The notes under the pieces: model-generated
The model's database searches: none
The model's input: only the letters and a program-made list of their open reading frames with translations
What the model was told of the DNA's origin: nothing
NCBI GenBank assembly: GCA_041494705.1
Contig: JBGQBI010000004.1
Coordinates: 296,471-328,470, forward strand
Source: Candidatus Methanoperedens sp.
GTDB taxonomy: Archaea > Halobacteriota > Methanosarcinia > Methanosarcinales > Methanoperedenaceae
Reading direction: 5' to 3'
DNA length: 32,000 nt
Shown here: one piece after another, positions 2,757 through 25,495 of the stretch
How the letters are laid out: every line of letters begins with the position of its first letter
How positions within the stretch are numbered: the first letter of the stretch is position 1
Translations under genes and position numbers: made by a program

Positions 2757-4061
2757 CTATAGTTCACTTGAAGTTTCTATATGCATTGATGCAGGGCTTT
2801 TTACTAGATTGCCCATTTTTGCGCCTATTAGAGTCTCAATTCCTTTTTCTGATGCAATATCCACAATGCGCTGGGTTATGACGCCATCGAATACCAGGCT
2901 TTTGACATTGCCGTTTATGTCCCTCAATGCATTTGCGAGGTCGCGTACAGGCACTTCGCTTATGACGCTGTTCTGTTCATCGATAAAACGCGCGCTGAGC
3001 GTGCCGCTCAATTGGGTTATATGTTCCTGGAAAGGACTTTCTTTCCTGGCCTCTTTTTCCCTTTCTTCTCTGGGTTCTTCCCTCGGCCTGGGTTTTTCTG
3101 GCTCTGGCGCTTCAAATTCTGCAAGCTCTTCCTTGGCAGGTTTCATTTCTATTTCTTCAGGAATTGATGGTTCGCTCTTTCCTGTTGTCTTTTTCCTTGT
3201 CGCTGCCATGATGGCAACTCTTCTCTTTTTGCCGACCTGGTAATAATCAAGCCCCTGCTCAACAGGTAGTTTCTGTCTTAGTGACTTGACAATTTCTTTC
3301 TGGACAAGTTCCTCAACGCCTTTCCCGTCCGGGGCGCGCGCAATGAAATCTATATCCGCGACCTGGAGCAGTTCCTTTATTATGAGTTCCCCGCCCCGGT
3401 CTCCATCTGTAAAAGCCGTGACCGTCTTTTTCTTGCATAAATCGACCACAGCCTGCGGCACATTTGTTCCACCGACTGCAATAGAGTTCTTAATACCGTA
3501 ACGCAGGAGGTTAAGCACATCAGCCCGCCCTTCAACCACTATTATGGCATCCGAATCAAGAACATTGGGTCCCATCGGGATGTTATCCTTGCCATACGTG
3601 GTCATCTCTTCAATCCTCACAGACTGCCTGACCTCATCAATGATTTCCTGGCTTTCAGGCAGCATTTCATCAAACATCGCTGTAAGAATCTGTTTTGCGC
3701 GGTCTACTACCTGTTTCCTTTTCGATGACCTCACATCCTCTATTTTAACCACACTGATGTTTGAGATGCATGGTCCTATCCTGTCAATGGTTTCAAGGCT
3801 GGCTCCAAGGACAGCGGTTTCAACCTTATCAAGGCTTGAAGGTATCTCGATTGTCCCGTTTGATTTACCCATGTTTGATTTTATATTGACCTCAAGCCGT
3901 CCGATCCTGCCGCTTTTTTGCAGTTCCCGCAGGTCAAGGTCAGCGCCTATTAGTCCTTCTGTCTGCCCGAAAATCGCCCCGACGACATCCGGTCGTTCTA
4001 TAACTCCATCCGCTTTTATTATGGCATGAATGATATATTTTGTTGTATCTGAATTTTGCAT
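2757..4061 (-). CDS. dnaG: Archaeal DnaG primase (Toprim domain; exosome-associated)
   Basis: N-terminus [31 protein letters not shown]. Toprim motifs [11 protein letters not shown] and [11 protein letters not shown]. Charged low-complexity insert before the C-terminal domain. Confidence 0.9.
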
Positions 4062-4399
4062 GTTTAGTACCCTCCCTAAGAATAGTGTTAGAAAAAGAAT
4101 TTCACTGGTTTGAACTACGCTATTTCGACGTTTTTTACTATCCTGAACTAATATCGTTTCTATTAGTCCCCGGACTATTTATCTTTCTCAAACCGGAAAT
4201 GACAGGTAACATTGAATATCAGGCCACAATTCATTGATTGTGACTTCTGCATGATTATTATTATCTGAATCTAACTACTTTCTTGGATGATTATTTGCAT
4301 TGATGTTTTTCGTAACCGCATCAATGCAAGTCATACTATAATTGCCGAATCACTTTAAAAACTTTGTGGTTATCCCTTTTGATAGGATGAGATGTAAAA

Positions 4400-4442
4400 A
4401 CAAAATAAAAAAATACGTTTTCAGGTGGAACGCCAAACACCT
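4400..4442 (-). terminator. Putative terminator after the ferritin-like gene (hairpin plus oligo-T)
   Basis: On the minus strand, 1 nt after the stop: AGGTG-N10-CACCT (4442..4423), followed by GAAAACGTATTTTTTTATTTTG. Oligo-T is the usual archaeal termination signal. Confidence 0.35.
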
Positions 4443-4443
4443 A

Positions 4444-4854
4444 TTATTTCAAGAGGATCGTGAACGTATGTTTGTGTTCTTCCTCAGCCGTTAAAATCTC
4501 CTCAAACAATAATCGTGTGGTTGAGTCCTCTTTTTCGGATGCCTTGTCTATTATTTCTTTGTACAACCCGATAGCCTCGTTCTCTGCCCGGAGGTCGTTC
4601 TCAATCATCTCTTTCAGGGAATCGCCCACCTTAATCGGCGTTGGTTTGGTTGTAGGAATCCCGCCAAGATAAAAAAGCCGTTCTGCAATCTTTTCGGCAT
4701 GTTTCATCTCTTCTATGGCAATATCTTCGAAAACATCTTTAATCTCAGGGCTTTTCATACCCAATGCCATAACATGCTGCCACATGTACTGTACACTAAC
4801 ACCGATTTCCCTTGCAATCGCTTTATTTAATAACTCCAGCAATTCATCCGCCAT
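4444..4854 (-). CDS. Ferritin-like diiron protein (bacterioferritin family)
   Basis: Two E...ExxH diiron ligand sets (IEEMKHAE and AEEEHKH) in a four-helix-bundle-sized protein. First ATG at 4854; the track start at 4863 is TTG. Confidence 0.75.
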   Translation of the reverse strand: MADELLELLNKAIAREIGVSVQYMWQHVMALGMKSPEIKDVFEDIAIEEMKHAEKIAERLFYLGGIPTTKPTPIKVGDSLKEMIENDLRAENEAIGLYKEIIDKASEKEDSTTRLLFEEILTAEEEHKHTFTILLK

Positions 4855-13199: not shown

Positions 13200-13610
13200 T
13201 CACAGTTTTTTATAGATGATAACTCTAAGTTTTTCTATTATCGCCAGAATTTCTTTCATTTTTCTTTCCAGATACTCATCGGTTACGAAAAATCCGTTAT
13301 AAGCGATACGATTTCTTGTCAATCTCAGGTCATCTATGAGCGAAATCTCATGTCTTTTGAATTCCGGGTAATTTTTCTCCAGATACTCTATCAGCTTTTT
13401 ATGCGCCCCTTCTCCCTGCGTCTTGTAACCATCCAAAAGTAAAATGACTGTAATAAGCTCCCGAATGACCTCATAATATTCCTTAAGTACATTGGATGGA
13501 TATTTCCTGGAGTCTATTGCGCTTATCATTTCCAGTGTGGTTTCCACCATTTTCAAGATGGATTTTGCCTTTTCCCTGTCAGGGATGGTTTTTATGATGC
13601 CTTCTTCCAT
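13200..13610 (-). CDS. HEPN-domain protein (partner of the upstream nucleotidyltransferase)
   Basis: 136 aa all-helical protein with LRLTRNRIAYNG where HEPN proteins carry Rx4-6H. Its start overlaps the upstream gene's stop by 1 nt at 13610. Confidence 0.6.
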   Translation of the reverse strand: MEEGIIKTIPDREKAKSILKMVETTLEMISAIDSRKYPSNVLKEYYEVIRELITVILLLDGYKTQGEGAHKKLIEYLEKNYPEFKRHEISLIDDLRLTRNRIAYNGFFVTDEYLERKMKEILAIIEKLRVIIYKKL

Positions 13611-14149
13611 CAGAACACCTTCAGGTAGCCTTTTAAAATTGTCCCATTTATTATGTTGTTTTTCAATTCGTTGCTGAGTTCACCAAAATCGTTGCTAAAT
13701 AACAGGCTGATTTTTCTTTTTATTTTTTTCTCGAAATCCTGTAAGTCCATCTTTCTTTCTTTGCACATCAGGTATAAGTCTATATCGCTTTTTATTGTAT
13801 CTTCGCCTCGTGATGCAGAGCCGAACAAAATTATAACGTCAGGCATGCATTTGCTATCAAGAAACTCTATTAAGCCTGAGTCTTTTAAGGTCATTATTGT
13901 ATCTATTTTTTTCAGGAACCTGAATTTTTCGCTTTCCAGGTTCGCCCGATAAACAGGATATGCATGTATCCGGTGTCTGGATATTGTAATCAGTTCTTCA
14001 TTAACCAGTTCGTTCAGATACCGCTTTACAGAGGTTGTGGCAAGTTTTGTAATTCTGCCAATCTCTCTTAATTGAAATCCTGCGCCTTCCGGATTCGGGT
14101 TCTCAAAGAAGACCTTAAGCACTTTCCATTTGTTATATTTTTGTAACAT
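13610..14149 (-). CDS. Minimal nucleotidyltransferase (MNT) with an N-terminal winged-HTH
   Basis: LFGSASRGEDTIKSDIDLYL is the GSxxRGx(n)DxD Pol-beta-type NTase motif. The N-terminus (LREIGRITKLATTSVKRYLNELVNEELI) is wHTH-like. ATG at 14149; a TTG at 14158 is also possible. Confidence 0.75.
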   Translation of the reverse strand: MLQKYNKWKVLKVFFENPNPEGAGFQLREIGRITKLATTSVKRYLNELVNEELITISRHRIHAYPVYRANLESEKFRFLKKIDTIMTLKDSGLIEFLDSKCMPDVIILFGSASRGEDTIKSDIDLYLMCKERKMDLQDFEKKIKRKISLLFSNDFGELSNELKNNIINGTILKGYLKVF

Positions 14150-16775: not shown

Positions 16776-17573
16776 ATGGAAATCAATCCTCTGTTAAATG
16801 AGCCTGCTCTTATCGTTGAAAACACCAAAAAGACGCTTGTGATCGCCGATGTACACCTGGGAATAGAATGGGAGCTTTACCACCGCGGTTTTTCAATTCC
16901 CAGCCAGGTTGAGAAGCGCAAAAAACGCATCTGCGATTATATTGAAAAAGTAAATCCGGACAGGATAGTACTTCTTGGGGATATCAAGCACAACGTGCCC
17001 AGGACATCATGGCAGGAAAAGAAGGAAGTCCCGGAATTCCTGAGGACAATAGCGGCGTTGGCGCCGGTGGATATCGTTCCCGGCAATCATGACGGGGATA
17101 TAGATGCTCTTATCCCTGAAAACGTGACGATGCATGAGATGAGGGGTTTTGTGCTTGACGGCGTTGGTTATTTCCACGGCCATACATGGCCTGGTGCGGA
17201 ATTGCTATCAGCATCGCATGTTGTAATGTCGCACAACCATCCCACGATAAGGTTCACAGACCCTCTCGGTCATGCTGTTTCTGAGGAGGTATGGATACGG
17301 ACGCACTTTATTGAAAAAGCCATCAGGGAATATTACGGGGATATTGTGTGGAATGACCCGGAGGTTATAATAATGCCAGCATTTAATGAATTATGCGGCG
17401 GGATACCTTTTAATGAATCCATTCATGAAGAACTGCTGGGTCCGGTCTTTGCAAACCATGCAATCGAACTTGAAAAAGCAACCGCATACCTGCTTGATGG
17501 CACGAATCTTGGTACAATCGGGAGCATCAAAAATCTTGGAATTACCAGGGTGAGAAGAAAAAGGAAAAAGTGA
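16776..17573 (+). CDS. Calcineurin-like metallophosphoesterase (Rpe-like, RPA-operon associated)
   Basis: Metallophosphoesterase motifs ADVHLG, LLGDIKH, GNHDG, FHGH and SHNHP. Third gene of the RPA operon. Confidence 0.75.
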   Translation: MEINPLLNEPALIVENTKKTLVIADVHLGIEWELYHRGFSIPSQVEKRKKRICDYIEKVNPDRIVLLGDIKHNVPRTSWQEKKEVPEFLRTIAALAPVDIVPGNHDGDIDALIPENVTMHEMRGFVLDGVGYFHGHTWPGAELLSASHVVMSHNHPTIRFTDPLGHAVSEEVWIRTHFIEKAIREYYGDIVWNDPEVIIMPAFNELCGGIPFNESIHEELLGPVFANHAIELEKATAYLLDGTNLGTIGSIKNLGITRVRRKRKK

Positions 17574-17621
17574 ATTTTAAAAATAAATAAAGAACCCTGA
17601 CAATTTGTTCGGGTTAGGGGG

Positions 17622-18677
17622 TCATTTTATAGACCCCGCCACTTTAACCAGTTCTTCCTTGCTCAATGGGCTGGAAACCGTCAGTTCAAGATTTCCGATG
17701 TTCCATGTAAGCATTTTGCTCTCTCCAAACCCGGACATGATTTTACCTTCAGCGCCATTTATGCTGACCTTCTCAACATCCCCAAAATCAGGCGCATGGT
17801 TCGTATCATCCTTCAGCTTTTCAGAAAGCAGAAGCATTTGCGAACCTTTCTGATATGTAAGGGATACGATTTCCATTTTGTCATATTTGAATACTGTGGC
17901 GCTTTCAAATACATACCCCTCTGGCAGATAGGAAGGCGAAATTACTGAGAAATTGACTTCTTTCTTCGCCTCTTCAAGTGTTATCTTTTTAGGCGGCGCG
18001 GGCAGCTCTCGTGTGGAAACTTTCGCCCCTTCAGGTATCTTGAACTCAAATTCGCTGTCAGGTATGCCCGTGTTGAACTTTATATCGCGATATTCTATAG
18101 AAGATAAAAGTGTATCGTTCTTATCAAAAGTTTCCATTTTAAGAGGCATCCAGTTTTCACTGTCTACCCACATGCTGAAATGTATTCCCATCAACATATC
18201 TTCTTTTTTGGGCGCGGCTTTTATGAGATATACGCTGCGTTCCTCAAACTTATCCGTGCCCTGATATGATATGTCTGTCTGGTTAAGAAGTTCCCTGATG
18301 GATTGTATGTAATCCTGTTCGGATGGATTGGTATTGTTGATTTCAGGCATATCCATCTTAGTTACCTCATTTTTCTTAGGGTCGTAACTCCAGATGGTCT
18401 TGCCGTCGTTGACCATGACCTGGCCGGCCATTTCAGCGGGTTCAAGATATTCAAACCGGCTTTTGCCGGGCATCTTGTTTATTATTTTAGCCTTTGTCAT
18501 CTCGTTCTTTCCGCCAAACGATGATGAGATGACCATCGTGGCTGAATAGTCTTTAATACTGTCCTGCTTCGCTTTCATCTGCTTTGCAATCTGCTCGGCA
18601 GACATGTTCGCAGTACAGCCAGAAATAAGGGCTATTATAATAACTGCGAGCAGAACTATTCCTGTTCTTTTAATCAT
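17622..18677 (-). CDS. Lipoprotein with a LolA-like fold and DUF4367-like C-terminal domain
   Basis: Signal peptide ending in the lipobox LISGC. The pattern YSATMV...GKSRFEYLEP...GKTIWSYDPKKNEV is typical of LolA/outer-membrane-lipoprotein-sorting-like beta-barrels. AGGAGG SD present. Confidence 0.6.
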   Translation of the reverse strand: MIKRTGIVLLAVIIIALISGCTANMSAEQIAKQMKAKQDSIKDYSATMVISSSFGGKNEMTKAKIINKMPGKSRFEYLEPAEMAGQVMVNDGKTIWSYDPKKNEVTKMDMPEINNTNPSEQDYIQSIRELLNQTDISYQGTDKFEERSVYLIKAAPKKEDMLMGIHFSMWVDSENWMPLKMETFDKNDTLLSSIEYRDIKFNTGIPDSEFEFKIPEGAKVSTRELPAPPKKITLEEAKKEVNFSVISPSYLPEGYVFESATVFKYDKMEIVSLTYQKGSQMLLLSEKLKDDTNHAPDFGDVEKVSINGAEGKIMSGFGESKMLTWNIGNLELTVSSPLSKEELVKVAGSIK

Positions 18678-18782: not shown

Positions 18783-18977
18783 TTACTCATCAAAGATAAA
18801 AACCTCCTCTATTTTGGATTTCAATACCTTTGATATATCGTATGCAAGTTTCAACGAAGGATTATATTTCCCCTTTTCTAAAAAAAGGATGGTTTCTCTT
18901 CTCACACCTACCTTTTTAGCAAGCTCTTCCTGGGTTAAATCGTATCTTGCCCGAAGCTCCTTGATTCTGGTTTTCAT
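18783..18977 (-). CDS. XRE-family (Cro/CI-type) HTH transcriptional regulator, 64 aa
   Basis: [48 protein letters not shown] is the canonical short XRE HTH. Its ATG overlaps the stop of the preceding membrane paralog (TAATG). Confidence 0.85.
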
Positions 18978-19405
18978 TATACTTCGCCTTTTTTGTCAAT
19001 ATAATGCCCAATAATTATCCAGGAAAACATGCTGGCGACCGAAATCACATATACCGTGCTTGTATATTCCAGCCTTAAATTTAAGATGCTGTTAGCAAGG
19101 CCGGAAACGATCAAGACCGCAATAAGCAGCAAAAATGCAAATGATCCAGCCTTCTCACCGACACGCATAGATCGTTCGTCAGCTATTGTATTTCCTTCTG
19201 ATTCTGCCTTGAACCTTTTGATGTTGAAATATGCGCCTATCAAAAGAGTCAAGCCAAAAATGATGAAAATCAAGGGCTCATAATACGGTTTTCCTTCATA
19301 AATAGTTTGAAGGAACCAAAAAGATGCAAATGCGAGCATAAATACGCTTGTGGCCAGGTTAATCTTACTCATCAACAGTAGTTTTTTATTTTCGTTAAGT
19401 TTCAT
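18977..19405 (-). CDS. Array paralog 1 (last in transcription order): 4-TM DER-loop membrane protein (DUF2178-like)
   Basis: 142 aa, four hydrophobic helices, loop [18 protein letters not shown]-terminus YIDKKGEV. Confidence 0.7.
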
Positions 19406-19803
19406 TCGATATCGCCTTTTTTGTAGAAATAAAATGCAAATAACGCATATAACACAAACATGCCTAAAGGCAAAAAAAACCCCACCTCAATAAAATTTAT
19501 CTCAGGCGGCGGAAATCCAATGTTGAGCATACCGAAAAGAGACAGAGAAACGAAAGTCAACCAAAAAACATAATATGCCGCCTTTTCTGAGCCTCTTTGT
19601 CCTCGTTCATCGACAAGAATAACTGTTGGTTTTGGTTTTGTTGATTGATATATCGTTCTTACCAGCATAGTGGCCCAAACAGCAGTAAAGACTGACAGAT
19701 GCTGATTTGATGTATTTTGAAGCCAACGCGCAAAAAAAATTAACACCAAAAAAATAAAAAAACCCGCTTCAAACAAAATATCTTTATCTTTCCTGAATTT
19801 CAT
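19402..19803 (-). CDS. Array paralog 2: 4-TM DER-loop membrane protein (DUF2178-like)
   Basis: 133 aa. N-terminus MKFRKDKDI, loop VDERGQRGSEKAAYYVF, C-terminus [12 protein letters not shown] overlaps at both ends. Confidence 0.7.
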   Translation of the reverse strand: MKFRKDKDILFEAGFFIFLVLIFFARWLQNTSNQHLSVFTAVWATMLVRTIYQSTKPKPTVILVDERGQRGSEKAAYYVFWLTFVSLSLFGMLNIGFPPPEINFIEVGFFLPLGMFVLYALFAFYFYKKGDIE

Positions 19804-20195
19804 TTAATATCACCTTTTTTATTATAAAACCACAGAAATAATATGAATGAATATATTCCCATAAACAAAATCACAACACTTGCATCCTTGTATATTATGG
19901 TTCCAGGAATTACAATTTCAAATATGTCCAGAATTATAATTGTCTCCATGACAATCCAAAAAGCAGCATGTCCTGCTTTATCCCTATTTTTATTAGTCCT
20001 CTCATCAGGCATAAAATATTCTTTTGGCTTTGATGCAACATACACACCCATTGAGGTCAGTATCAGCCCGCCAAGAATAAGCCCTCCGCCAAGAAATGGC
20101 GGATTTACATATTTGGATAGAACTGCGCCTACAAGCGCCATGCCTATGCTTGCCGCAAAAAACTTCATTATTTCTTTGTCTGTTCTGAATTTCAT
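19800..20195 (-). CDS. Array paralog 3: 4-TM DER-loop membrane protein (DUF2178-like)
   Basis: 131 aa. N-terminus MKFRTDKEI, loop PDERTNKNRDKAGHAAF, C-terminus FYNKKGDIK. ATGA overlaps at both ends. Confidence 0.7.
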   Translation of the reverse strand: MKFRTDKEIMKFFAASIGMALVGAVLSKYVNPPFLGGGLILGGLILTSMGVYVASKPKEYFMPDERTNKNRDKAGHAAFWIVMETIIILDIFEIVIPGTIIYKDASVVILFMGIYSFILFLWFYNKKGDIK

Positions 20196-20605
20196 TCAGC
20201 ATCACCTTTTTTGTTGTAGTACCACCTAAACACAATGAAAATCCATAGTCCGATAATCCATATATCCCGAACCACTTGCTCTACTTCTATCGACGGTGTT
20301 ATTGACGGGGAGATTTTCAGCAATCGCAGGAGCGAGATTATTGCTGCAATCAGCAGGGTTGCAATAAACGCAGAATATCCGGCTTTTTCACGGACTCTGG
20401 TGGAGCGTTCGTCTTCTATTAAATCTTCTTTAGATTTAGTTGCTGCAATAAGACCGGCAGTTAATCCTATCAGACCACCCATAATTAAAAGAAATCCGAT
20501 AGTGCTAAATGGTTTGATAAATAAAAAAATGATAATTCCAGCCAGAATTGCGCCCAGACTGATCCCAATAAATTTTATGATGTCCTTATCTTTCCTGAAT
20601 CTCAT
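20192..20605 (-). CDS. Array paralog 4: 4-TM DER-loop membrane protein (DUF2178-like)
   Basis: 137 aa. N-terminus MRFRKDKDI, loop EDERSTRVREKAGYSAF, C-terminus WYYNKKGDAE. Closest to paralog 6 (shared SPS(I/L)TPS and WYYNKKGD). Confidence 0.7.
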   Translation of the reverse strand: MRFRKDKDIIKFIGISLGAILAGIIIFLFIKPFSTIGFLLIMGGLIGLTAGLIAATKSKEDLIEDERSTRVREKAGYSAFIATLLIAAIISLLRLLKISPSITPSIEVEQVVRDIWIIGLWIFIVFRWYYNKKGDAE

Positions 20606-20631
20606 TTTATAGTCACCCTTATCTATCGGTT

Positions 20632-21042
20632 TTATTCTCCTTTTTTAACAAAATAGTAAACCAGTATGCCCCACGAATATATTCCGATATGTGCGACAAT
20701 TATCGGCGTCCATGGGGAATCCTTGGCTGCCAGCAGGAAATTATTTGTCCCACCCAAAATGTATGCTCCACTCAATAGAAACAAACATCCCATAAGAATC
20801 AGAAATGCGTATAAGCTCGCTTTTTCACCAGCTCTTCTGGTTCTTTCATCGCCCAAAACTCCTGTTCTTGGCCTGGACAAAAGAAGCGAGGCAGTTATGA
20901 TGATGTCCAACTGCCAAATAATGAAGATAATATTGTTTGGGCTAAACCTTCGTCCTAAAATTATTTGGATTATTGTACTTGCCAATAACACAAACCCGAG
21001 AACGAATACCAAATACAGCCATTTTCTGTTGAATTTGTTCAT
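20632..21042 (-). CDS. Array paralog 5: 4-TM DER-loop membrane protein (DUF2178-like)
   Basis: 136 aa. Loop GDERTRRAGEKASLYAF, C-terminus YFVKKGE. A 26-nt gap with GGGTGAC SD separates it from the next gene. Confidence 0.7.
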   Translation of the reverse strand: MNKFNRKWLYLVFVLGFVLLASTIIQIILGRRFSPNNIIFIIWQLDIIITASLLLSRPRTGVLGDERTRRAGEKASLYAFLILMGCLFLLSGAYILGGTNNFLLAAKDSPWTPIIVAHIGIYSWGILVYYFVKKGE

Positions 21043-21452
21043 TTGATATCACCTTTTTTATTGTAGTACCACTTAAGTATCAAGAAAGAGTACAGCCCTA
21101 TGACCCAAATTAGAAGAGCTCCACCCAAGAAATCGTTGGAAGGAGTTAACGAGGGGGACAACTTCACAATATTAAGGAACATAATTACTGCCGCCACAGA
21201 CACCATTATTTCATACGCGTAATACCCTGCTTTTTCCTTAATTCTTCCAGACCGCTCATCTTCCATAAAGTAATCTTTGGGTTTTGAAGCTATACGTAAA
21301 CCTATTATAAATCCCATCAGTCCGCTAGAAATTGAAATAACCCCAATAATCGTAATCTGGGGAATGAACCATATTATAAATGTTCCAGCCAAAATTGCAG
21401 CCAAACAGAATCCAAGAAGTTTTGAAATATCTTTGTCTTTTCTAAATTTCAT
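21039..21452 (-). CDS. Array paralog 6: 4-TM DER-loop membrane protein (DUF2178-like)
   Basis: 137 aa. N-terminus MKFRKDKDI, loop EDERSGRIKEKAGYYAY, C-terminus WYYNKKGDIK. ATGA overlaps at both ends. Confidence 0.7.
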   Translation of the reverse strand: MKFRKDKDISKLLGFCLAAILAGTFIIWFIPQITIIGVISISSGLMGFIIGLRIASKPKDYFMEDERSGRIKEKAGYYAYEIMVSVAAVIMFLNIVKLSPSLTPSNDFLGGALLIWVIGLYSFLILKWYYNKKGDIK

Positions 21453-21838
21453 TCCACGTCACCTTTCCTTTTGAAGAACCACTGAAAAACTCCCGCAGCC
21501 ACGGTCGCCACAGCCAATGTTAATGAAAGAGCTTGTGAAGCAGGCATCTTAACCAGATTATAAAGATCTAACCATAGCAATAAACTCACGAATATAAATG
21601 TAACCAGCCATGAATAAGCCAGTGCAAAAGCCCCAAGCTTTGTTGTTCTCTCATCACTCTCAGGTCCCTCTCCGAATTTTAGATGCCGAAGCGCGCTTCC
21701 TATAATGAGAATCAAACCGGACAATGTAAATAAACTTGCAATTAAACTGAAAACGCCTTTCCAGATAATCTCTATCGCTATACCCAGAAGCAGCAGCACA
21801 AGCCCAATCGCCAGACGGGATTTATATTCGTTCTTCAT
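21449..21838 (-). CDS. Array paralog 7: divergent 4-TM DER-loop membrane protein
   Basis: 129 aa. Loop SDERTTKLGAFALAYSW (EKA lost), C-terminus FFKRKGDVE. Confidence 0.65.
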   Translation of the reverse strand: MKNEYKSRLAIGLVLLLLGIAIEIIWKGVFSLIASLFTLSGLILIIGSALRHLKFGEGPESDERTTKLGAFALAYSWLVTFIFVSLLLWLDLYNLVKMPASQALSLTLAVATVAAGVFQWFFKRKGDVE

Positions 21839-21847
21839 ATACTTACT

Positions 21848-22234
21848 CTAAAACCCGATTTCCTTCTTTATCTTCGTATAATACAAGTGGAATGCTATTT
21901 TTGAAACTATTATGACCGCAATCAAAATCCCGAGTACTTCGAACACATCAAAAAGCATTGGGTAAAAATGCAACACTATCGTCAGTATCCCGATTGTTGA
22001 GATTGCTGCAACCAGTGTATACTCCGACGCTATGGAGGAAATTCTTTTTGTCATTTCATCTTTTTTCATTTCACCTTTGTATATTGATCTACGTAAAAAA
22101 TAATTTAAAAATAGTGCTATTCCAGCAGCGGCCATCATACTTACCCCAACAGTATCGCCATAAAATGATAAGATAACGGCAGCAATTCCAAAAATCGAAG
22201 CCAGTACCAGCGTTAGCATGTCAGATTTTTTCAT
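21848..22234 (-). CDS. Array paralog 8 (first in transcription order): most divergent 4-TM member
   Basis: ATG at 22234 is preceded by GGAGGT (22246..22241); the track start at 22249 is TTG. Loop is degenerate (KKDEMTKRISSIASEYTL) and the C-terminus YYTKIKKEIGF lacks KKGD. Confidence 0.6.
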   Translation of the reverse strand: MKKSDMLTLVLASIFGIAAVILSFYGDTVGVSMMAAAGIALFLNYFLRRSIYKGEMKKDEMTKRISSIASEYTLVAAISTIGILTIVLHFYPMLFDVFEVLGILIAVIIVSKIAFHLYYTKIKKEIGF

Positions 22235-22248
22235 ATCATCAACCTCCA

Positions 22249-22296
22249 AATGTTGTATATTTACAACATTATGTTATGTATTTAACACTATTTAAA
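22249..22296 (-). promoter_or_regulatory. Putative promoter (TATA box TTTAAATA) plus a perfect 9-4-9 palindromic operator upstream of the membrane-protein array
   Basis: Minus-strand TTTAAATA is plus 22289..22296. AATGTTGTA-TATT-TACAACATT lies at 22249..22270, about 20-40 nt downstream of the TATA box (the expected TSS zone) and directly upstream of the SD. Confidence 0.5.
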
Positions 22297-22471
22297 ACTT
22301 TCTTTTTTGTTAGAAATATATCACTTAAAAGTTCTTGAATACGAAGAACCTATAGCTCTGCAATAGATAGGAGCAGCTTTATCCGGTGTTGATAGCTGGT
22401 AGTGCGTCATCTTGATTTGTTTTTGTAAAAGTGACGGATGGTCCCGGTACGAACATTTAATTACATAACCT

Positions 22472-24466
22472 ATGAATATTAACCTGAATCTGGCTATGAA
22501 TCAAAGACAAAAACCAGCACAATCGACTGCATGGGAACAGGATAAAAATTACATTTTCTGGTGCCCCAAGTGCAACATCCCATTGCTTGAGGAAGAGTGC
22601 GGCATATGCCATGAAAAAAGTGCTCAAATCGAGCTTTCCCAGCCCGGAGACGTGCGGTTTTCCTCGCAGCATGAAAGAGAAATAATCAACAACTTGATGC
22701 TAGAGCTTTTTGGCAGCAATCCTCTTGCAGGAAAACTCATTCTTTTGAATAAAATTCCGGGCGAGGATAAGACAGACGAGATTCTCGTGGATGGAATTCG
22801 TTTCGGCGTGTTGAGATTCGATATGAAGGAACTCGATTTCAAGCTCGACCTCATGGTTGAAGGGGCTTCTGCGCTCATAAATTCAGGCATTTTAAGTAAA
22901 CTTGTTAAAATATCCTCAGGCGGGCGGCATCTGAGCGGCAAAAACATTGACGGGAGCGAAGTCATTGAGTGTTCGGAGGATATCAGGAAAGGGGATACCG
23001 TTCTTGTAATTGCCAGGAATTTAAGCGGGTTTGGCATATCATATCGCGATAGCGGCGATTTGAAACACCCGGGGCAGGCGTTAAAGGTCAAAAAAATCGA
23101 ATCGCAACAAGTGAGCTTTATTTCAAGGAATCCATCCATGGATGAAATTATCCGCGCCAATGCGCCTCACATGAAAAGGCTTGTCAGGGATGCCGTAAAT
23201 ACTATCAGGGGAATCGCAAACCAGAAAGAATTCAGGGATTCGCCTGTCTATGTTTCTTTTTCAGGCGGCAAGGACAGCCTTACAACGCTTGACCTCACGC
23301 GGAACGCCGTGAAAAAACCAATAAAGGTATTTTTTGCAAACACTGGAATCGAATTTCCGGAAACGGTTGAGTTTGTAAGAAGATTCTGCAAAGAAAACAG
23401 TATCGAGCTTATAGAAGTGGAGGCAAAGGATGCTTTCTTTGAGAATCTTCCGAGTTTCGGACCTCCTGCCAAGGATTTCAGGTGGTGCTGCAAGGTGTGC
23501 AAACTTGCGCCCATCAATACCGTCATAGAAGAATGCACGCGCGGCGGGGGGAAGTGTTTGACGATTGACGGGAAAAGGAAATACGAGTCCTTTACACGCT
23601 CGCGGATAGCCCCGAAAGAGGAGAACCCGTTCATTCCGGGGCAGGTGAGCGTGTTCCCGATACGCGACTGGCGCGCCATCGAAGTGTGGCTCTATATTTA
23701 TTACAGGAAACTTGAATTCAATCCATTGTACGAGCTTGGTTTTGAACGAGTGGGATGCTGGCTCTGCCCTGCTGAACTCAGCGCAGAATATTACCGGGTC
23801 AGGGAATTGCATCCTGAATTGTTTGGGCGCTGGAATGATTACCTTTTGAATTGGGCAAAAGAGCACGGAGTTACAGATGAATTCATCGGGCATGGATTCT
23901 GGCGCTGGAAAACATTGCCGCCCAAGATGATTCGCCTTGCTGAAGAGCTGAAAATCAGTACGGCATTAAAGGGCAAAAAAGAAGAGTTCGGCATCGTGGT
24001 GACAGGCGGGGTTTCGCCCTGCAAGACGGGCAGCTATACGATTGAAGGGAAAGTTTCAGGGCTTACACTTGATGAAGCCCAGAATATCGCCAACATCCTC
24101 GGTGATAATGTATTCTCAGAAGACCTCGGGGTGCTTCTGGTTAAAACAAAAAGCTCAAGCGTCAAGATATTTTCATCAGGGCATATCTCGGTGAATGCGC
24201 CGGATGAAAAAGAGGCGTTGTCGCTTTTTGAGAATGCGGCAAAGCAATTAATCCGGGTGAAGAAGTGCACGAAATGCGGCGTGTGTTTGAAAGTGTGTCC
24301 TGTGGATGCTATCGTTATCGAACCGCAGCTTAAAATAAGCAAAGAGTGCACACGATGCGGGAAATGTACGGAATCATGCGTTGTTGTGAAGTATTTTGAC
24401 AGGCTTTTGCCACAATTCAGCCAGAGAAATACCGTGCAATCACCGGCGTCACATAAGATTCAATAA
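22472..24466 (+). CDS. PAPS-reductase/PP-loop ATP-pyrophosphatase family protein with an N-terminal zinc ribbon and C-terminal 2x[4Fe-4S] ferredoxin domain
   Basis: CPKCNIPLLEEECGIC (Zn ribbon), VSFSGGKDS (PP-loop), CTKCGVCLKVCP and CTRCGKCTESC (ferredoxin motifs). The true start may be a downstream Met. The last ~9 codons run into repeat copy A. Confidence 0.75.
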   Translation: MNINLNLAMNQRQKPAQSTAWEQDKNYIFWCPKCNIPLLEEECGICHEKSAQIELSQPGDVRFSSQHEREIINNLMLELFGSNPLAGKLILLNKIPGEDKTDEILVDGIRFGVLRFDMKELDFKLDLMVEGASALINSGILSKLVKISSGGRHLSGKNIDGSEVIECSEDIRKGDTVLVIARNLSGFGISYRDSGDLKHPGQALKVKKIESQQVSFISRNPSMDEIIRANAPHMKRLVRDAVNTIRGIANQKEFRDSPVYVSFSGGKDSLTTLDLTRNAVKKPIKVFFANTGIEFPETVEFVRRFCKENSIELIEVEAKDAFFENLPSFGPPAKDFRWCCKVCKLAPINTVIEECTRGGGKCLTIDGKRKYESFTRSRIAPKEENPFIPGQVSVFPIRDWRAIEVWLYIYYRKLEFNPLYELGFERVGCWLCPAELSAEYYRVRELHPELFGRWNDYLLNWAKEHGVTDEFIGHGFWRWKTLPPKMIRLAEELKISTALKGKKEEFGIVVTGGVSPCKTGSYTIEGKVSGLTLDEAQNIANILGDNVFSEDLGVLLVKTKSSSVKIFSSGHISVNAPDEKEALSLFENAAKQLIRVKKCTKCGVCLKVCPVDAIVIEPQLKISKECTRCGKCTESCVVVKYFDRLLPQFSQRNTVQSPASHKIQ

Positions 24467-24568: not shown

Positions 24569-25495
24569 ATGTCCGATACCGATACATCATCAATCCAGGA
24601 AAAGCTTCTTTCACGCATAAATGAAAAAATACACAGGCTTAACTCGCTTCGCCCTCTTCCAGCCGATGCCGTAAAAAAGTTACATGAAGAAATGAGGCTG
24701 CTGCATACGTATCACTCAAATGCAATAGAAGGGAATACCCTGACGCTTCCCGAGACAAAACTTGTTCTTGAAGAGGGTATTACCATAGGCGGGAAATCAC
24801 TGCGCGAGCACCTTGAAGCAACAAACAATGCCAGGGCATTCGATTTAATAGAGGATATTGCAAAGAAGAAAAAGACAATAGACCATGCTGTAATTCAGCA
24901 AATTCATGAAGTTATCACGTCAGGCATTCTCGAAGGCGCAGGCAAATACCGCACCAAGAACGTCAGGATAACGGGTGCAGCAAAAACTCCGCCAGACTGG
25001 TCAAAAGTTACCAAGCTGATGGATGAGCTTATTGAAAAAATCACTCAATGTAAAAGACATCCTGTTGATATTGCTGCCTTCCTGCATCACAGATTCGTTG
25101 AGATACATCCATTCATAGATGGAAATGGCAGGGCGTCCCGCCTTCTCACCAACCTGTATTTGATTGCCCAGGGTTATCCGCCAATAGTTCTCAAAATAGA
25201 GGACAGAGGAAAATATTACAGGTTCCTGAGAGCAGCGGATGCTGGAAACATTGTCCTGTTTGCCAATTTCATTGCAAAGGCTGTTGATGAGAGCCTGACG
25301 ATGTATCTTTCCATCTCTGGCGGGGTTGATGAACTGCTGCCCCTCAGAGAACTTGCTGGAAACACACCTTATTCCCAGGAATACCTGAGCCTGAGAGCAA
25401 GGCAGGGTGTTCTGGATGCGGTAAGAATAGGGAAAATATGGTATTCATCAAGAAATGCAATAGAACAATATCTATCTGAACACGGCAAACGATAG
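24569..25495 (+). CDS. Fic family protein (AMPylase-type) with an N-terminal inhibitory motif and C-terminal HTH-like domain
   Basis: Canonical HPFIDGNGRASR (HxFx[D/E]GNGRxxR). The upstream SNAIEGN fits the (S/T)xxxE(G/N) autoinhibitory helix. The C-terminal ~60 aa (LRELAGNTPYSQEYLSLRARQGVLDAVRIGKIWY) looks like a small DNA-binding domain. Confidence 0.85.
   Translation: MSDTDTSSIQEKLLSRINEKIHRLNSLRPLPADAVKKLHEEMRLLHTYHSNAIEGNTLTLPETKLVLEEGITIGGKSLREHLEATNNARAFDLIEDIAKKKKTIDHAVIQQIHEVITSGILEGAGKYRTKNVRITGAAKTPPDWSKVTKLMDELIEKITQCKRHPVDIAAFLHHRFVEIHPFIDGNGRASRLLTNLYLIAQGYPPIVLKIEDRGKYYRFLRAADAGNIVLFANFIAKAVDESLTMYLSISGGVDELLPLRELAGNTPYSQEYLSLRARQGVLDAVRIGKIWYSSRNAIEQYLSEHGKR

Follow-up and report, generated by a model that had tools for sequence, protein, structure and literature searches.

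Why would an archaeon keep eight diverged copies of one small membrane protein in a row, all on the same strand and all leading into the gene for a short DNA-binding protein? The question is raised by a 32,000-nucleotide stretch of a Candidatus Methanoperedens genome (ANME-2d, a group of anaerobic methanotrophic archaea), here called the window. Its minus strand holds nine close-packed open reading frames (ORFs) at 18783–22249: eight paralogous membrane proteins of 128–142 amino acids (aa) and a 64-aa helix-turn-helix (HTH) regulator of the XRE type. We give about an even chance to the reading that the unit is an autoregulated membrane-sensor/repressor operon of the CylR1/CylR2 type, free of any phosphorelay, in which the set of sensors has been expanded and which is tied to the envelope or to peptide-toxin export. 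This reading is favored because an HTH protein this small, lacking a sensing domain, must receive its input from elsewhere, because the XRE gene overlaps the last membrane gene, because the membrane proteins conserve only their cytoplasmic face and differ elsewhere, because an operator-like palindrome sits on the shared promoter, and because handling of the envelope or of peptide toxins is what the linked genes suggest.

The array, its membrane proteins and its regulator

The eight paralogs are numbered W1 to W8 in transcription order, and positions are window coordinates unless a compared locus (L number) is named. The unit comprises the following features.

22289..22297, minus strand: TATA-like box TTTTAAATA, putative archaeal promoter (from sequence)
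22250..22269, unstranded: operator-like perfect palindrome ATGTTGT-ATATTT-ACAACAT, 20 bp (from sequence; the motif recurs in relatives)
21848..22234, minus strand: W1, leader DUF2178 paralog, 128 aa (DUF2178 E 7e-5; leave-one-out hidden Markov model (HMM) E 2.5e-8; 89-91% orthologs)
21449..21838, minus strand: W2, DUF2178-family paralog, 129 aa (no Pfam match; leave-one-out HMM E 2e-15; orthologs 64-69%)
21039..21452, minus strand: W3, DUF2178 paralog, 137 aa (E 5.6e-6; 96% ortholog; AlphaFold2 predicted local distance difference test score (pLDDT) 84.7)
20632..21042, minus strand: W4, DUF2178 paralog, 136 aa (E 2.2e-5; 85% ortholog)
20192..20605, minus strand: W5, DUF2178 paralog, 137 aa (E 2.5e-4; 93% ortholog)
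19800..20195, minus strand: W6, DUF2178 paralog, 131 aa (E 4e-4; leave-one-out HMM; ortholog comparison)
19402..19803, minus strand: W7, DUF2178 paralog, 133 aa (E 0.02; leave-one-out HMM E 1.5e-18; 97% ortholog)
18977..19405, minus strand: W8, DUF2178 paralog adjoining the XRE gene, 142 aa (E 3.9e-5; 85% orthologs; TAATG overlap with XRE)
18783..18977, minus strand: XRE/HTH_3 regulator, 64 aa (Pfam HTH_3 E 2e-15; full-length CylR2 homolog)
17622..18677, minus strand: LolA-like + DUF4367 lipoprotein of the SsdC/YdcC type, 351 aa, lipobox LISGC (Pfam LolA_like, LolA, MucB_RseB, DUF4367)
17558..17583, minus strand: T-rich stretch with three T5 runs, candidate archaeal terminator of the 10-gene unit (sequence only)

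The nine ORFs stand where an initial annotation of this DNA had placed them, with listed lengths of 142, 133, 131, 137, 136, 137, 129 and 133 aa from W8 to W1 and 64 aa for the regulator. The W1 ORF reaches back to a TTG at 22249; since this codon falls within the palindrome and a GGAGGT ribosome-binding site precedes the ATG at 22234, the latter is the likely start. Read from the ORF coordinates, the junctions are as tight as had been described: five are 4-nt ATGA overlaps (19402-19405, 19800-19803, 20192-20195, 21039-21042 and 21449-21452), and the W8 stop and the XRE start share one nucleotide at 18977 (TAATG). The two remaining paralog junctions are gaps of 26 nt (20606-20631) and 9 nt (21839-21847). 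The array is also more AT-rich than its surroundings, as noted earlier, with a GC content of 0.36–0.40 vs 0.45–0.49 in the flanks.

Pfam family DUF2178 (PF09946, gathering score 22.8 bits) matches seven of the eight copies, an assignment also made in a precomputed Pfam table. Four copies reach the gathering score (W8 24.1, W4 24.9, W3 26.8 and W1 23.3 bits), three score below it (15-21.5 bits) yet specifically, and W2 has no match. When each copy is left out in turn, the HMMs of the others recover it in all eight cases (E 2e-36 to 2.5e-8), W1 being the most divergent. Homology among the eight paralogs is far beyond chance. The earlier assignment to DUF2178-type proteins paired with a short XRE regulator therefore holds, for W2 by the leave-one-out HMM, and the eight do not fall into unrelated families.

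As for topology, hydropathy and the positive-inside rule predict four transmembrane (TM) helices with the N-terminus inside the cell, the second helix of W7 being weak. The proposed layout of two TM helices, a loop and two more TM helices agrees with this prediction and with the AlphaFold2 model of W3 (77 sequences; pLDDT 84.7), which shows four long helices. Three K/R-rich parts are predicted to be cytoplasmic, namely the basic N-terminus, a loop of 25–30 residues with 6–7 K/R that carries the D-E-R motif (the DER loop), and the KKGD tail, while both of the two external loops are short. In the W3 model, D65-E66-R67 opens a 31-residue helix (66-96), the first half of which is cytoplasmic before it becomes TM3. 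A Foldseek search of this model against the PDB gave no match with E < 1, the top entries being generic helical bundles (G-protein-coupled receptor fragments and ferritins).

Conservation is concentrated on the cytoplasmic side. Of the 18 best-conserved columns in an alignment of 110 family members, 14 are cytoplasmic; the D, E and R of the loop are present in 97%, 100% and 88% of the sequences, respectively. Glycines are conserved in TM1 and TM2. No polar residue is conserved within the TM helices, which led us to reject a channel or transporter as the primary role. In the window, D-E is invariant from W1 to W8, although the W1 loop has DEM instead of DER; the longer loop motif of the initial annotation is complete in five to six copies, with W1 and W2 deviating, and its N-terminal motif M(K/R)FR(K/T)DK(D/E)I is found in exactly four (W3, W5, W6 and W7). 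Between paralogs, identity falls from 37% in the cytoplasmic parts to 23% in the TM helices and 20% in the external loops, just as expected from the earlier view that the TM segments had diverged while the loop and termini were kept. Between orthologs it is even (cytoplasmic 81%, TM 77%, external loops 75%).

As for the regulator, its product is an HTH domain without any further domain (Pfam HTH_3, 56.9 bits). Residues 4-61 of 64 align with residues 5-62 of the 66 of CylR2 (PDB 1utx_A) at E 5.3e-9, and XRE is, by this alignment, a full-length homolog of CylR2. The closest solved structure, with a better score than CylR2, is PDB 9k3w, a 65-aa "PbsX family" regulator (E 1.7e-13), on which a literature search found no papers.

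Relatives of the unit in Archaea and Bacteria

GTDB species genomes were scanned for related loci with two peptide patterns taken from a tightened alignment, which returned 27 loci in Methanoperedenaceae, Methanosarcinaceae, ANME-2 and metagenome-assembled genomes (MAGs) of other Methanosarcinales. All 27 carry tandem copies, between 2 and 10 each, and 15 arrays, the window counted, have at least five. An eight-fold array, which had been thought exceptional, is thus nothing unusual in this group; long arrays are routine among the relatives, and none is annotated with a function. Of the 26 loci with ORF calls, 23 have the XRE gene immediately after the array. Two of the three other arrays end ~70–80 bp from a contig end, and the two-copy locus L021 alone lacks XRE internally. 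Some genomes hold more than one module: L004 and L029 are two separate arrays in one MAG, as are L005 and L021 in another, and a second, single-copy DUF2178 gene followed by an XRE gene is found a few kb past the main array in L027 (13024-13662) and L028 (14289-14922).

The window subtypes have orthologs in other species, in colinear order and for the most part 85–97% identical (W2 64-69%), and subtype content is mosaic from genome to genome. Because orthologs this close exist elsewhere, recent local amplification was rejected, and the array is an old repertoire with gain and loss. W1, which the initial annotation had called degenerate, has orthologs (89–91%) that always stand first in their arrays, and it keeps the first position in Methanosarcinaceae as well, at 57–59% identity; it is a conserved leader subtype and not a degenerate copy.

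Single pairs of a membrane protein and a regulator are found much further afield. Among Bacillus and Clostridium regulators, the closest matches to the window XRE are 59–68% identical to it, and for three of them the gene adjoins that of a membrane protein. CylR2-like regulators adjoin small membrane proteins in C. botulinum, B. mycoides, L. lactis, Haloferax larsenii and H. volcanii. All five partner proteins have D-E-(R/M/L) before the penultimate TM helix. The archaeal profile scores 34 bits on the C. botulinum protein, 29 on that of H. larsenii, 20 on that of L. lactis and 14 on that of H. volcanii, values that none of 2000 shuffles equals. In HHalign, the Lactobacillales family, which bears the NCBI name DUF2178, matches the archaeal family at 93% (P 3e-7). 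That bacterial DUF2178 proteins share the cytoplasmic D-E-R helix with the membrane proteins of the window is solid. The B. mycoides partner is a DUF3796 member, and the C. botulinum partner matches both the archaeal profile and, weakly, DUF3796, which suggests that the two families are related.

These Bacillota and haloarchaeal DUF2178/DUF3796 pairs resemble the window in their regulators, in a homologous membrane family, and in gene order and overlap, and those of C. botulinum and B. mycoides also have the same operator motif. They differ in having one membrane gene per regulator (two in H. volcanii), in the reversed order in L. lactis and in their frequent location on plasmids; the window, by contrast, combines eight diverged subtypes with a linked LolA/DUF4367 gene. 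On the H. volcanii plasmid pHV4 (NC_013966.1, L035), a 76-aa membrane protein (1868-2098), a 4-TM protein with the DER motif (2100-2495) and a CylR2-like XRE (2501-2701) follow one another, and a halocin C8-like gene (3724-4641) lies 1 kb downstream of the XRE gene. In this locus, the genetically tractable H. volcanii may have an archaeocin-linked parallel to the cytolysin arrangement.

In Enterococcus faecalis, CylR2 represses the cytolysin promoter, and CylR1, a small membrane protein encoded immediately upstream of cylR2, is needed for the response to the extracellular peptide CylLS''. The pair works without a phosphorelay, and cytolysin immunity comes from another protein. Its likeness to the window extends over several features. 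The regulators are homologous over their full length (66 aa in CylR2, 64 aa in XRE; E 5e-9), and each is preceded directly by a co-oriented gene for a small polytopic membrane protein that abuts or overlaps the regulator start; on the cytolysin plasmid (L030), the stop codon of cylR1, ending at 1500, abuts the start codon of cylR2 at 1501. Neither system has a kinase or phosphorelay partner. As read from the plasmid, CylR1 consists of TM1, KKDER, two TM helices and a basic tail, an order shared with the C-terminal three-quarters of the window proteins, whose first helix has no equivalent in CylR1, and in both a cytoplasmic D-E-R precedes the penultimate TM helix and a basic tail forms the C-terminus. 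A palindrome in the cyl regulatory region, TTGTTGT-N7-ATAACAT, is related to the window's ATGTTGT-N6-ACAACAT. The differences are also plain. CylR1 has 94 aa and three TM helices, is encoded in one copy and has almost no relatives, whereas the window encodes eight 4-TM copies of ~135 aa. The cyl pair is divergent from a lantibiotic operon, whereas the window has no nearby toxin genes and its linked genes encode a LolA-like lipoprotein (with ABC exporters in relatives). Unlike E. faecalis cyl, moreover, the window belongs to an archaeon with an archaeal-type promoter.

Homology of CylR1 to the archaeal membrane proteins is probable but not proven. A word-indexed search returned only near-identical CylR1 proteins, and an exhaustive HMMER search of 1.84 billion representatives returned one distant relative, in which DER is invariant. 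When the 110-sequence archaeal family was aligned by HHalign with the two-sequence CylR1 profile, the match had a probability of 60% (P 9e-5) with the DER loops in register, vs 0.3% for a reversed control. The archaeal HMM scores 6.9 bits on CylR1, a value matched by 4 of 2000 shuffles, and the L. lactis DUF2178 protein matches CylR1 at E 4e-5 to 2e-4, a result matched by 1 of 2000 shuffles. The L. lactis-type family was also tried as a bridge and rejected, its link to the archaeal family being 93% and that to CylR1 7.7%.

Candidate operator, operon extent and linked genes

On the minus strand, the palindrome upstream of W1 reads AATGTTGTA-AATA-TACAACATT (22270..22249); the TATA-like box TTTTAAATA flanks it on one side and the GGAGGT/ATG at 22234 on the other. 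From this position, transcription would start within the palindrome, and a bound repressor would cover the start. We searched 353 kb of related loci for the motif ATGTTRT-N6-AYAACAT with up to two mismatches and found 36 sites vs ~9 in shuffles, an approximately 4-fold enrichment. Twenty-five of the 36, spread over 16 loci, stand at most 150 bp ahead of the first gene of the array, often as two sites 21 bp apart, a spacing close to that reported for another short Cro/C1-type HTH regulator in a bacteriocin gene cluster (paired 20-bp repeats ~22 bp apart). Counted by locus, the motif is at the operon 5' end in ~20 of 27, and in four ANME-2-type loci the operon begins with a LolA-like gene, the motif lying ~75 bp upstream of it.

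The motif is also present upstream of the C. botulinum pair, as three abutting sites, and of the B. mycoides pair, with a near-match of N7 spacing in the cyl region. The half-sites on the C. botulinum plasmid pCBH are those of Methanoperedens; its three 20-bp operator-like sites, ATGTTATATAATTTTAACAT, AAGATATAAATATATAACAT and TTGTTAAAATTATATAACAA, stand directly upstream of the pair (L032:2026-2085). In the cylLL-cylR1 intergenic region of the E. faecalis cytolysin plasmid, TTGTTGTATATTGCATAACAT (L030:1121-1141) resembles the archaeal operator with N7 and one mismatch, and a separate palindrome with 12-bp arms, TTTTGTCAAGTGTCACTTGACAAAA, is found at 1178-1202. A different conserved palindrome, CGGAGTC-N8-GACTCCG, precedes the first DUF2178 gene in the ANME-2-type loci L023 (~3842-3863, where it overlaps the 3' end of the LolA-like gene), L025 and L027. 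It may form a hairpin in the RNA or serve as a second site of protein binding.

As for the extent of the operon, no run of five or more T occurs between the genes of the unit, including the interval from XRE to the LolA-like gene, and three T5 runs directly follow the latter. One 10-gene transcript, probably with the LolA-like gene last, is therefore likely, and the single translationally coupled transcript suggested earlier is plausible. Since the operator precedes the LolA-like gene in four ANME-2-type loci, we assign the lipoprotein, on grounds of gene context, to the array unit; the gene is linked to arrays in ~13 loci. Its product, recognized from the start as a LolA-like lipoprotein on the same strand, scores above the gathering thresholds of LolA_like (47.8 bits), LolA (37.6) and DUF4367 (53.4), and reaches 65.1 bits on the LolA equivalog TIGR00547, below the cut-off of 112, which makes it a member at the domain level only. 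The LolA+DUF4367 architecture is that of SsdC from B. subtilis, and proteins with a LolA fold can regulate by binding other proteins.

Its scores on MucB_RseB, LolA and DUF4367 also recall RseA/RseB/sigma-E and similar systems in which a transcription factor is sequestered at the membrane. There, as in the module proposed here, a membrane protein controls or holds a small cytoplasmic transcription factor, and the LolA-fold lipoprotein would be the extracytoplasmic component. The likeness is one of mechanism only: XRE is no kin of sigma factors, DUF2178 is no kin of RseA, and the neighborhood holds no protease.

In ~9 related loci, a set of exporter genes comes next after the array and XRE, on the same strand. 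It encodes a Yip1-domain protein, ABC ATPases (of which one has a DrrA-like C-terminal domain), an ABC-2 permease, a 411-aa secreted protein and a permease with MacB_PCD and FtsX domains (MacB_PCD+FtsX). This composition resembles that of DrrAB-type ABC-2 exporters and of YknWXYZ (Yip1, membrane-fusion protein and MacB-type ABC transporter), which pumps the SDP peptide toxin out of Bacillus and whose Yip1 protein is YknW. Unlike YknWXYZ, the loci encode no recognizable membrane-fusion protein, and the 411-aa protein has no Pfam match. The 411-aa protein (L003:6480-7715, with homologs in 7 loci) is always encoded between the ABC ATPase/ABC-2 permease and the MacB/FtsX permease genes, and may have a membrane-fusion or adaptor role in an archaeal YknWXYZ-like system. 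Adjacency alone suggests that the exporters are co-regulated with the arrays.

Competing explanations and wider bearing

The homologies, topology, conservation, operator position and gene linkage described above were computed, and from them we infer that XRE binds DNA and touches the membrane proteins, and also what the signal and the regulon would be. In the sensor/repressor reading, a dimer of the 64-aa XRE would bind the inverted repeat of the promoter, that is, the 20-bp palindrome over the predicted transcription start, and so repress its own operon. The eight 4-TM paralogs would present a common cytoplasmic face, made of the basic N-terminus, the D-E-R helix running into TM3 and the KKGD tail, while their TM helices and external loops would be specific to each subtype. 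Their cues would come from the membrane or from outside the cell, hydrophobic or peptide toxins or signals being the most plausible, and the signal would reach the repressor through the common face, by sequestration or by conformational change. Derepression would yield more sensors, the LolA-like lipoprotein and, in relatives, the downstream ABC exporters. Three roles had been suggested for the array at the outset, and the one that fits best with the CylR2 homology, the cytoplasmic conservation and the operator is a membrane-tethered signal or anti-repressor set. The connection with CylR1/CylR2, the operator and the exporter linkage did not figure in the initial annotation.

Several points weigh against this reading. 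The mechanism of CylR1 itself is unresolved in the literature, so the analogy explains less than it appears to. CylR1 has three TM helices where the window proteins have four, Pfam DUF2178 does not match it, and the profile of the Lactobacillales family reaches only 7.7% against it in HHalign. External loops are not hypervariable among orthologs (81/77/75% for the cytoplasmic, TM and external parts), so nothing hints at an arms race over a surface that binds ligands. The operator is assigned its function from position and conservation, the exporter genes are absent from the window itself, and retrieval with two patterns biases the sample of loci towards this subfamily. A literature search found no papers on DUF2178, DUF6442 or DUF6773 and passing mentions of DUF3796, with no functional literature for either DUF2178 or DUF3796.

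An unlikely alternative is that the paralogs are an effector or immunity repertoire protecting against membrane-active peptide toxins or archaeocins, with XRE as a plain autorepressor that makes no contact with them. Tandem mosaic arrays of diverged small membrane proteins, varying in composition between species, are typical of such repertoires; the neighbors are exporters of the kind used in peptide-toxin resistance, the H. volcanii pair adjoins a halocin C8-like gene, and short XREs regulate bacteriocin clusters. However, the TM helices and external loops that would face the toxin are the least conserved parts between paralogs, whereas the invariant D-E-R and the KKGD tail are cytoplasmic and would be left unexplained. 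The stop-start overlap with XRE is conserved. The 64-aa HTH, having no sensor domain, needs an input, and in the sole homologous pair that has been studied CylR1 is needed for signaling while immunity comes from a different protein. The five ATGA overlaps, for their part, suggest coupled, near-equimolar translation, which brings to mind a hetero-oligomeric membrane complex whose stoichiometry is set by the coupling, for example a scaffold for the LolA-like lipoprotein or for MacB-type exporters. The age of the subtypes, each under purifying selection, in colinear order and with a fixed leader, speaks for such a complex, as do the glycines in TM1 and TM2, which suggest helix packing, and the envelope genes linked to the arrays. 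Yet an obligate complex would keep fixed subunits, whereas copy number ranges from 2 to 10, subtypes are mosaic between close species, and one copy suffices in bacteria and haloarchaea; the link to a CylR2-like repressor is not explained either. We consider a complex of this kind decidedly unlikely.

Far less probable still is a toxin-antitoxin, abortive-infection or virus-exclusion module, in which the membrane proteins would be toxins or effectors and XRE the antitoxin or controller. XRE does score on HipB, MqsA and control-protein models, and a PADLOC model of a 4-TM "Effector" gives a faint match to W1 (E 0.09), but the XRE matches are generic HTH matches far below curated cut-offs (best antitoxin score 41.6 bits vs 71.65). 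Neither the membrane proteins nor the LolA-like protein has a PADLOC match with E < 0.01, XRE having generic HTH matches only, and the membrane proteins have none in PHROG; a viral-contig scan found no relatives of the module, and neither Pfam nor PADLOC recognized a toxin family among the neighboring genes. The flanks of the array are housekeeping genes in conserved synteny, and no known toxin-antitoxin layout has eight conserved toxins in tandem and a single antitoxin at the 3' end. With these empty scans, the defense and phage readings were rejected, including the virus-exclusion role suggested initially.

A broader version of the sensor/repressor reading, which we hold tentatively and place short of an even chance, is that DUF2178, DUF3796 and CylR1, with their CylR2-type repressors, represent one ancient phosphorelay-free system, together with its operator, in Bacillota and Archaea, and that Methanoperedens and ANME-2 expanded it to as many as 10 receptors converging on one repressor through the D-E-R helix. 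CylR1/CylR2 controls a clinically relevant toxin, yet its mechanism has been unsolved for more than 20 years and the pair has been treated as nearly unique. If the broader version is right, this "enigmatic" one-off becomes a superfamily with the DER helix as its signaling interface, and the arrays a many-sensors-to-one-regulator design for peptide or hydrophobic signals or toxins in consortia. The co-occurrence of repressor, DER-motif partner and 20-bp operator from Clostridium and Bacillus to haloarchaea and ANME offers testable residues (D-E-R, the KKGD tail) and a DNA site. It also points to a possible signal-sensing repertoire, tied to envelope lipoproteins and to exporters like those of peptide-toxin resistance, in methane-oxidizing archaea, whose cell-cell interactions are little understood. 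The pairing of DUF2178 with XRE is already recognizable from database annotations, while the link between DUF2178 and CylR, the cross-domain operator and the 2–10-copy arrays in methane-oxidizing archaea appear to be new and extend a known kind of system. A working hypothesis is now attached to DUF2178 and, more tentatively, to DUF3796.

Some other features of the window deserve mention. Rfam and tRNA scans of the window found nothing. On the minus strand, a Polbeta-type nucleotidyltransferase gene (13610-14149) is followed with a 1-nt overlap by a 136-aa ORF (13200-13610), and the pair is possibly an MNT/HEPN-like toxin-antitoxin; a weak operator-like site with two mismatches (14130-14149) at the start of the nucleotidyltransferase gene is probably due to chance. 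A Fic-domain protein of 308 aa is encoded at 24569-25495 on the plus strand (precomputed Pfam list for the identical contig L001). A gene transcribed divergently from the array, on the plus strand at 22472-24466, encodes a PAPS-reductase-domain protein of 664 aa that has 4Fe-4S ferredoxin motifs; between this gene and the array lies their common 222-bp intergenic region with the operator, and the synteny is kept in L003 and L011.

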